Shown here piece after piece: positions 1,105-1,576 of a stretch of DNA of 8,509 nucleotides. Source of the DNA: a virus (Duplodnaviria; Heunggongvirae; Uroviricota; Caudoviricetes); IMG/VR virus record IMGVR_UViG_2541047122_000023; one strand, 5' to 3'. Position 1 is the stretch's first letter. Every line of letters starts with the position of its first letter. Position numbers and translations under genes: made by a program. The notes beneath the pieces were generated by a model, which saw only the letters and a program-made list of their open reading frames with translations, was not told the origin of the DNA and did no database searches.

Positions 1105-1440
1105 TTACTCCTTAGAGCCACCAAATTTGTTACCGATTACTCGCATTGCAGCCCCACGAATAGCATCGACACCGATCAGCCCCACCCCACCACCAATGGC
1201 AACAGAAAGTGATTTAGGCCATCCGACATACTCAAGAGCGGATGCAAAGGTCAGCGTCAGAGCGCCACATAGCAAAATCTCGAGCGTTTTTCGCTTCCAG
1301 CCACCACCACCGCCAAAATAGGCGATGCGCAAACCAGCCATAACGATCGACATAATCACTGCACCCAGCGGTGTGTCTCCACGCCACCAGCTCTGAAACA
1401 ACTCCAGCCAGTCCGGCCAGGTATTTGGGTTATGAGGCAT
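1105..1440 (-). CDS. Putative holin (not lambda S-like), 111 aa from ATG at 1440; alternative GTG start at 1536 would give 143 aa
   Basis: Sits immediately upstream of the endolysin (3-nt gap) in the lysis-cassette position. Three hydrophobic glycine-rich segments (LGAVIMSIVMAGLRIAYF, LEILLCGALTLTFASALEYV, LSVAIGGGVGLIGVDAI) are consistent with a multi-TMD holin. Start at 1440 is preferred because the upstream extension would include a terminator hairpin and its U-tract; GAGGTGAGAG lies 9 nt before that ATG. The GTG at 1536 also has a good SD (AAGAGG), so the start is unresolved. No recalled homolog; function is by position and hydropathy only. Confidence 0.6.
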   Translation of the reverse strand: MPHNPNTWPDWLELFQSWWRGDTPLGAVIMSIVMAGLRIAYFGGGGGWKRKTLEILLCGALTLTFASALEYVGWPKSLSVAIGGGVGLIGVDAIRGAAMRVIGNKFGGSKE

Positions 1441-1480
1441 TTCGTCATCTCTCACCTCGCGATATTTGCGGGTGCTGTGT

Positions 1481-1509
1481 TGGAAATAAAAAGGCCACGC
1501 AACGTGGCC
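1481..1509 (-). terminator. Intrinsic terminator immediately upstream of the lysis cassette (minus strand)
   Basis: GGCCACG-caa-CGTGGCC (1493-1509) is a 7-bp GC-rich stem with a 3-nt loop. On the minus strand it is followed directly by TTTTTATTTCC (complement of 1492-1482). Confidence 0.55.
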
Positions 1510-1576
1510 ACCAGAATTATTTCCCCACCAGTTCACTTACCTCTTTCACCGTCTGATTAAACCGCTCTGACTCAAG

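Follow-up and report, generated by a model that had tools for sequence, protein, structure and literature searches.

Which holin precedes the lambda-type endolysin and spanin genes of this locus, and at which codon does its translation start? The window, the whole 8,509-nt stretch of DNA analysed here (IMG/VR virus record IMGVR_UViG_2541047122_000023), carries on its minus strand a 143-codon ORF (1105-1536) together with R, Rz and Rz1, as read on the reverse strand from the ORF listing. A first-pass annotation of the letters alone had described a mosaic lysis cassette with a "non-lambda" holin, whose two candidate starts, ATG 1440 and GTG 1536, might encode a holin/antiholin pair. The features behind that proposal are all present in the ORF listing and in folds: the open frame, GTG 1536, an AAGAGG ahead of it, ATG 1440 in frame and a hairpin between the two codons. 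Comparison with related alleles makes a different answer very probable: an SfV-type class I holin of the lambda family with a single start at ATG 1440, whose antiholin has been lost and whose GTG form is accidental, within an ordinary mosaic.

The minus strand has the gene order of a lambdoid late region: Q, terminators, S, R and then Rz/Rz1, all on one strand. The Q antiterminator gene (3280-4032, minus strand; PF03589) is followed by a low-GC insert of two minus-strand genes (2149-3068; 1892-3144 at its widest), which lies between the Q-proximal terminator and the holin. These encode proteins of 180 aa (phrog_11949) and 61-77 aa (phrog_11292), neither of which matches Pfam. Beyond it, an N6/N4 DNA methyltransferase gene is represented by its last third only (1577-1891, minus strand), a C-terminal stub that matches PF01555 at profile positions 156-209 only and is flagged by PGAP as a pseudogene without an N-terminus; the full gene is orf48 in Shigella phage SfV. 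In SfV the methyltransferase gene lies ahead of S; here the low-GC insert takes the place of its first two thirds. Prophages in E. coli O157:H7 and related strains match the whole 3.3-kb stretch at 99.7% identity, and the cassette is the late lysis cassette of an O157:H7-type lambdoid prophage.

The family of the holin was settled by profile searches, a check that the first-pass annotation had itself named. The protein matched PF05106 (Phage_holin_3_1, "Phage holin family (Lysis protein S)") with an E-value of 5.9e-27 and a score of 94.4 bits (cut-off 23.8), the match spanning positions 2-99 of the 99 in the profile, and it matched no other Pfam family. The NCBIfam equivalog TIGR01594 (holin_lambda) scored 125.3 bits against a cut-off of 55.05, with holin residues 1-108 aligned to profile positions 2-105 of 107, and the PHROG assignment was phrog_126, holin/anti-holin (6e-40). 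The translation is identical to RefSeq WP_001120501.1, a 111-aa protein that PGAP names "phage holin, lambda family" and starts at the equivalent of ATG 1440. With S of Shigella flexneri phage SfV (AAL89451.1; U82619/NC_003444) it shares 99.1% identity, and with the holins of SfII, SfIV and mEp460_4F5 95-97%. The label "non-lambda holin" does not hold against scores this far above the curated lambda-family cut-offs. The impression behind it was accurate at one level: in a 79-residue alignment only 25% of positions are identical to lambda S, and the protein therefore looks unlike lambda S by eye, but at family level both profiles match above their cut-offs. Judged by its sequence, the protein is a divergent yet unambiguous class I holin of the lambda S family, of the allele first described as SfV S.

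That the gene might instead encode some other small membrane protein that merely happens to precede an endolysin, and that has no holin function, is almost inconceivable given the match to an equivalog-level model, the position directly 5' of R within the late operon, and the 99% identity to the S gene of SfV, a functional phage. The allele is also common. Of 5426 complete E. coli genomes, 432 (about 8%) contain its start region, and over the 76 nt of this region 316 E. coli records show 100% identity to the window. The gene is a catalogued, long-annotated holin, and the cassette around it is ordinary lambdoid mosaicism that had already been annotated.

Two in-frame codons compete as the start of this gene. 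The 143-codon ORF opens at GTG 1536-1534, the first start codon after an in-frame TAA, and the AAGAGG (1545-1540) lies only 3 nt ahead of it, these three being the TAA itself. ATG 1440 is in frame with this ORF and opens the 111-aa holin gene S (1105-1440, minus strand, TAA stop included). Between the two codons lies the hairpin GGCCACG-TTG-CGTGGCC (1509-1493) followed by TTTTTATTT; it has a 7-bp GC-rich stem and a 3-nt loop, folds together with its T-tract at -12.5 kcal/mol, and was found by a terminator scan as an intrinsic terminator upstream of S (1484-1509, minus strand). The SfV record annotates a putative rho-independent terminator at the same site.

The proposal that both codons are used, GTG 1536 for a 143-residue antiholin and ATG 1440 for a 111-residue holin, draws on the frame being open from 1536 with AAGAGG ahead of it, and on the long form being called by some automated annotations; we nevertheless regard it as very improbable. 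The spacing of 3 nt between Shine-Dalgarno (SD) sequence and GTG is short, and the 32-codon extension crosses an intrinsic terminator. The extension is also missing or closed by stop codons in alleles whose holins are the same or 97-98% identical. In strain C311 (L016) an identical holin protein is preceded by sequence unrelated to that of the window, and in SfIV and strain DA33137 (L015) a TAA stands three codons ahead of the holin ATG. Among 80 IMG/VR loci with holins at least 98% identical to that of the window (L017-L096), the holin frame is closed by a stop codon 2-4 codons ahead of the ATG in 12. Comparison of alleles already largely refutes the two-start model of GTG 1536 and ATG 1440.

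The position of ATG 1440 is, in contrast, where the family begins. Both the PF05106 and the TIGR01594 matches start there, and 74 of 80 full-length cluster representatives begin either at this position or two codons before it. In an alignment of 43 sequences, Met1 of the window protein shares its column with Met3 of lambda S (the S105 start) and with residue 3 of the relatives whose N-terminus is MKM or MRM. We infer, from homology and conservation only, that ATG 1440 is the start and the equivalent of lambda Met3. The stretch from 1441 to 1536 (minus strand) is best read as a non-coding leader that is open in the holin frame by chance, and the GTG 1536 "long form" as an accident of that open frame. 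PGAP and the SfV record both use the 111-aa form. The record of mEp460_4F5 (LR595868.1; 305-727 of L005) and the JGI cluster P0005 annotate the long GTG form, of 140 aa, and that of vB_EcoM-683R1 (500-736 of L006) a truncated 78-aa form from an internal Met inside TMD1; these calls are regarded as gene-calling errors. The evidence points to one start and no antiholin form, the outcome that the first-pass annotation had named as contrary to its own proposal.

The first-pass annotation had also remarked that dual starts are frequent in holins. This is borne out for the family, but the motif sits at the position of ATG 1440, not at GTG 1536, and here it has been lost. Within a large protein collection, 64 of the 80 full-length cluster representatives begin Met-Lys/Arg-Met at this position and 10 begin at the Met3 equivalent. 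The motif is present in Fels-1, SW-37, YeP1, OS31, 473R12 and 683R1, and the start region of the 473R12 (MKM) type occurs in 253 E. coli genomes. The sub-branch to which the window holin belongs has dual-start members in Fels-1/ST64B (whose holin carries the annotation "Dual start motif"), Salmonella phage SW-37, Yersinia phages YeP1-3 and the E. coli phages vB_EcoS-473R12 and vB_EcoM-683R1. These have the length of the window holin and its conserved core WWRGD...LRIAY...LCGALTLT, at 41-93% identity, and differ from it in keeping ATG-AAA/AGA-ATG in frame. One dual-start relative, MKMPHNPNTW... (GCA_940589335.2, cluster P0042; 1501-1851 of L013), shows an apparent compensated double frameshift across TMD1 and loop 1, with GCSHVVMHGWFTHRLLWWWWRLEE in place of AVIMSIVMAGLRIAYFGGGGGWKRK, and is probably an inactivated holin.

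In the window the motif is broken. The DNA reads gaggtgagag-ATGACGAA-ATG-CCT, that is, ...GAG ATG ACG AA ATG CCT, so that ATGACGAAATG stands where an intact relative has ATGAAAATG. The in-frame codons ahead of ATG 1440 are GAC GAA (Asp-Glu), and the only nearby upstream ATG (1448-1446), 8 nt from ATG 1440, is out of frame. It opens a 30-codon ORF in the +1 frame (1356-1448, minus strand), a probable remnant of the broken Met-Lys-Met dual start. Since this upstream ATG is out of frame, no S107-type antiholin could be made. The most informative intact relative (cluster P0018, locus L014) has the exact N-terminus of the window holin plus MK (MKMPHNPNTWPDW...), with ATGAAAATG intact; its DNA reads gaggtgagagatc-ATG-AAA-ATG-CCT, and the two alleles compare as gagagatcATGAAAATGCCT in L014 and gagagATGACGAAATGCCT in the window.

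The same site was compared across the 80 close IMG/VR loci (1441-1453 in the window, about 376-400 in each of the others). Four forms of the 8-9 nt spacer 5' of the holin ATG precede these at least 98% identical holins, and the flanking SD and coding sequences are constant. The form of the window, gagagATGACGAA, occurs in 58 loci; gagagATGATGAA, which keeps the old ATG and has lost one A of the Lys codon, in 10; and two forms without an upstream ATG, gagagacgatattc and the SfIV-type gagagataactacaa, in 6 each. In none of the 80 loci does the leader spacer contain an upstream Met codon in the holin frame. By their sequence, none of the four forms, that of the window included, could yield an S107-type antiholin, which is defined by extra N-terminal positive charge (the S105/S107 mechanism is reviewed in PMC9636201).

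The ATGATGAA form, found in 10 loci, looks like an intermediate between the intact ATG-AAA-ATG and the ATGACGAA of the window. On the simplest path of decay, the A-run of ATG-AAA-ATG would first have lost one A, followed by a C-to-G change one base upstream and then a T-to-C change in the old Met codon, or, written as forms, C-ATG-AAA to G-ATG-AA (10 loci) to G-ACG-AA (window), with one deletion and two substitutions. A 2-nt insertion (ATGA[CG]AAATG) had been considered as the origin of the broken motif and was dropped given the intact L014 and the 10 intermediate loci. The absence of the dual-start motif from the holins of SfI, SfII, SfIV and SfV has already been published (PMC3851460); for its mode of decay, with intact and intermediate alleles, we found no description in the literature, and this is a minor point. 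In clusters P0014 and P0048, from Logan/ENA assemblies, rare calls open with MTKCLITQIP..., as translated from the out-of-frame ATG 1448, and are back in the holin frame ahead of QSWWRGD; these could be assembly errors or natural indel variants with a new holin N-terminus.

One further in-frame codon might in principle restore a longer product. GTG 1455-1453 lies in frame and would add five residues including an Arg (fMet-Arg-Asp-Asp-Glu-Met...), giving a modified antiholin. This is hardly credible and GTG 1455 was rejected as a start, because it lies within the SD itself (GAGGTGA), inside a predicted hairpin and without an SD upstream of it, and because the extension is acidic. S107 owes its inhibitory action to positive charge (PMC9636201), the opposite of the net -2 of this extension, and SfIV-type alleles have a stop codon between the GTG 1455 position and the ATG.

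The SD of the holin gene, GAGGTGA (1458-1452), is predicted to pair with CACC-CGC (1474-1468) in a hairpin (1474-1453, minus strand; element 1452-1474 with the SD). This is the positional counterpart of a stem-loop in lambda, the known sdi element of Blasi and Young's work, which includes the SD and sets the ratio of the two starts. A hairpin including the SD was predicted in all 13 family members folded, lambda among them. The 56-nt segment has a z-score of -2.48, and none of 200 shuffles folds as well. The pairing probability of the SD (0.80) is not significantly above that for shuffled upstream sequence (0.74), 45 of the 200 shuffles equalling or exceeding the value of the window. The existence of an SD-sequestering hairpin in the window is suggestive only.

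The spacing of the signals raises the possibility that the leftover ATG acts as a decoy. The GAGG core (1458-1455) is 14 nt from ATG 1440, a long spacing, and 6 nt from the out-of-frame ATG 1448, an ideal distance, and ribosomes on the two starts would be mutually exclusive because these are only 8 nt apart. ATG 1448 could then capture a share of the ribosomes, which would pass over the holin start while making a junk peptide of 30 codons; this would throttle holin synthesis and delay lysis, so that a translational brake would replace the lost antiholin. Such a decoy would be compatible with a single start at ATG 1440, and spacer forms with an upstream ATG account for 68 of the 80 close loci as well as the 316 identical E. 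coli records, but we consider it rather unlikely. The 12 loci with the gagagacgatattc or gagagataactacaa form carry the same holin without any upstream ATG, and the latter form is that of SfIV, an isolated and viable phage (PMC3851460), so the decoy would be dispensable. ATG 1448 is, moreover, most simply a by-product of the decay of the old dual start. A broader idea is that the SfV-type lineage represents a natural "S105-only" experiment, in which, once the loss of one base from the A-run had destroyed the antiholin start, timing would be tuned through the 8-9 nt spacer, with the out-of-frame ATG as a throttling decoy and a translational brake in place of the protein-level inhibitor; this is distinctly unlikely. 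The preferred reading remains a single start at ATG 1440, with ATG 1448 as a remnant.

The first-pass annotation had described a glycine-rich protein with transmembrane segments and named a topology prediction as a further check; the description was accurate. GGGGG occupies residues 43-47 and GGG residues 84-86, and Kyte-Doolittle analysis predicts three hydrophobic segments (approximately 21-43, 51-70 and 77-102). The net charge is -2 in the N-terminal tail, +3 in loop 1 (WKRK) and +2 in the C-terminal tail, a pattern that fits a predicted N-out/C-in class I layout (class defined in PMC9636201) by the positive-inside rule. An AF2 model built from a 38-sequence alignment places helices at 9-20, 24-41, 48-72 and 76-105 and lends weak support to the three-segment topology, its pLDDT of 58 being of low confidence and too low for a fold search.

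Side by side with lambda S, the window holin shares the profile-defined family, the three hydrophobic segments, a basic loop after TMD1, a basic C-terminal tail, the place before R, an SD in a predicted hairpin like sdi, and a start that corresponds to Met3. It differs, besides its 25% identity, in a longer and Trp-rich N-terminal periplasmic tail, in S and R genes that do not overlap (TAA-TTT-ATG) and in the lack of an in-frame Met1-Lys2, so that it would have no antiholin form. SfV is much closer. Its DNA matches the window almost base for base from the leader through S, with the terminator, the SD, the out-of-frame ATG and the coding DNA alike bar a few substitutions, and it has the same order of methyltransferase, terminator, S and R and likewise no dual start (noted in PMC3851460). 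The two differ at residue 108 (S in SfV, G in the window), in the methyltransferase gene, which is full in SfV and a stub in the window, and in Rz/Rz1, which in the window are of the lambda type and not of the SfV type.

The partner endolysin bears on the class of the holin. R (625-1101, minus strand; 158 aa) is 95% identical to lambda R and assigned to phrog_90, endolysin. It has no hydrophobic N-terminal segment (maximum 19-residue hydropathy 0.11) and hence no SAR segment, and is therefore predicted to be a soluble endolysin that would require a large-hole holin. A class II pinholin of the phage 21 S21 type, which would be a PF04971-type protein of about 70 aa with two TMDs, paired with an endolysin that carries a signal-anchor-release segment at its N-terminus, was ruled out: the window holin has 111 aa, three segments and a match to PF05106 only, and R has no SAR segment. 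R gave no Pfam-A match at E ≤ 0.01 and no NCBIfam match at E ≤ 0.001 despite its 95% identity to lambda R. It is named by PHROGs only, PGAP calling it "glycoside hydrolase family 24 protein".

Downstream of R lie the spanin genes, Rz (167-628, minus strand; 153 aa, inner-membrane subunit; 98% identical to lambda Rz, PF03245 E 1e-53) and, embedded within it in a different frame, Rz1 (226-408, minus strand; 60 aa, outer-membrane lipoprotein subunit with a VVGC lipobox; 97% identical to lambda Rz1, PF06085). The first-pass annotation of R, Rz and Rz1 as near-identical to lambda was correct, as was the description of a holin directly upstream of them in a mosaic cassette. Sliding identity places the switch inside R. 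Resemblance to SfV extends from about 1886 to about 970, and resemblance to lambda from about 1083 to 1. Against SfV, identity is 92-100% from 1560 to about 840, falls to 70% by 720-661 and is lost beyond; against lambda, the sequence is unrelated down to 1090, 72-80% identical at 1089-970 and 85-100% identical at 969-10. R is homologous in all three, with a 5' third that is SfV-like and a remainder that is lambda-like, and the crossover lies at about 970-1000. The same S-R-Rz arrangement is found in mEp460_4F5 (92%). Lambdoid recombination of the ordinary kind, at the shared R gene, accounts for an S of SfV type joined to R/Rz/Rz1/bor of lambda type.

By analogy with the family, a course of lysis can be proposed for this cassette. 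RNA polymerase modified by Q would read through the terminator at 1484-1509, and the holin would build up harmlessly in the inner membrane, with three TM helices, N-out and C-in, until it triggers at an allele-specific time and forms large holes. The soluble lambda-type transglycosylase R would then gain access to the wall, and the Rz/Rz1 spanin pair would act last, disrupting the outer membrane. Unlike lambda S and most close relatives, the window allele would make no S107-type antiholin, its ancestral ATG-AAA-ATG (Met-Lys-Met) probably having been broken by the loss of one A, with ACG at the old Met1 position and ATG 1448 left over out of frame. The main value of this assignment is correct annotation, with ATG 1440 as the probable true start, and it has little significance beyond that. 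It also identifies a common allele that would be naturally without an antiholin in an otherwise dual-start family, and the intermediate alleles that appear to trace the decay of the motif form a natural series for relating holin translation signals to lysis timing.

At its two ends the window touches the flanks of the prophage. The 3' end of a serum-resistance lipoprotein gene (1-135), called iss in O157:H7 annotation and bor in that of lambda, lies on the plus strand, opposite to the lysis genes as in lambda. Just past the window start, an HNH endonuclease pseudogene follows bor/iss in O157:H7 strain MB9-1 (5485-5643 of L003); the HNH gene is truncated there and the lysis genes are intact. 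This HNH gene has been speculated to time lysis in phages without a dual-start holin (PMC3851460). At the other end, an open-ended minus-strand ORF (8258-8509) encodes the C-terminal part (integrase core) of an IS3-family transposase and matches IS elements that flank the prophage in O157:H7 genomes, such as IS1203 beyond bor in strain MB9-1.
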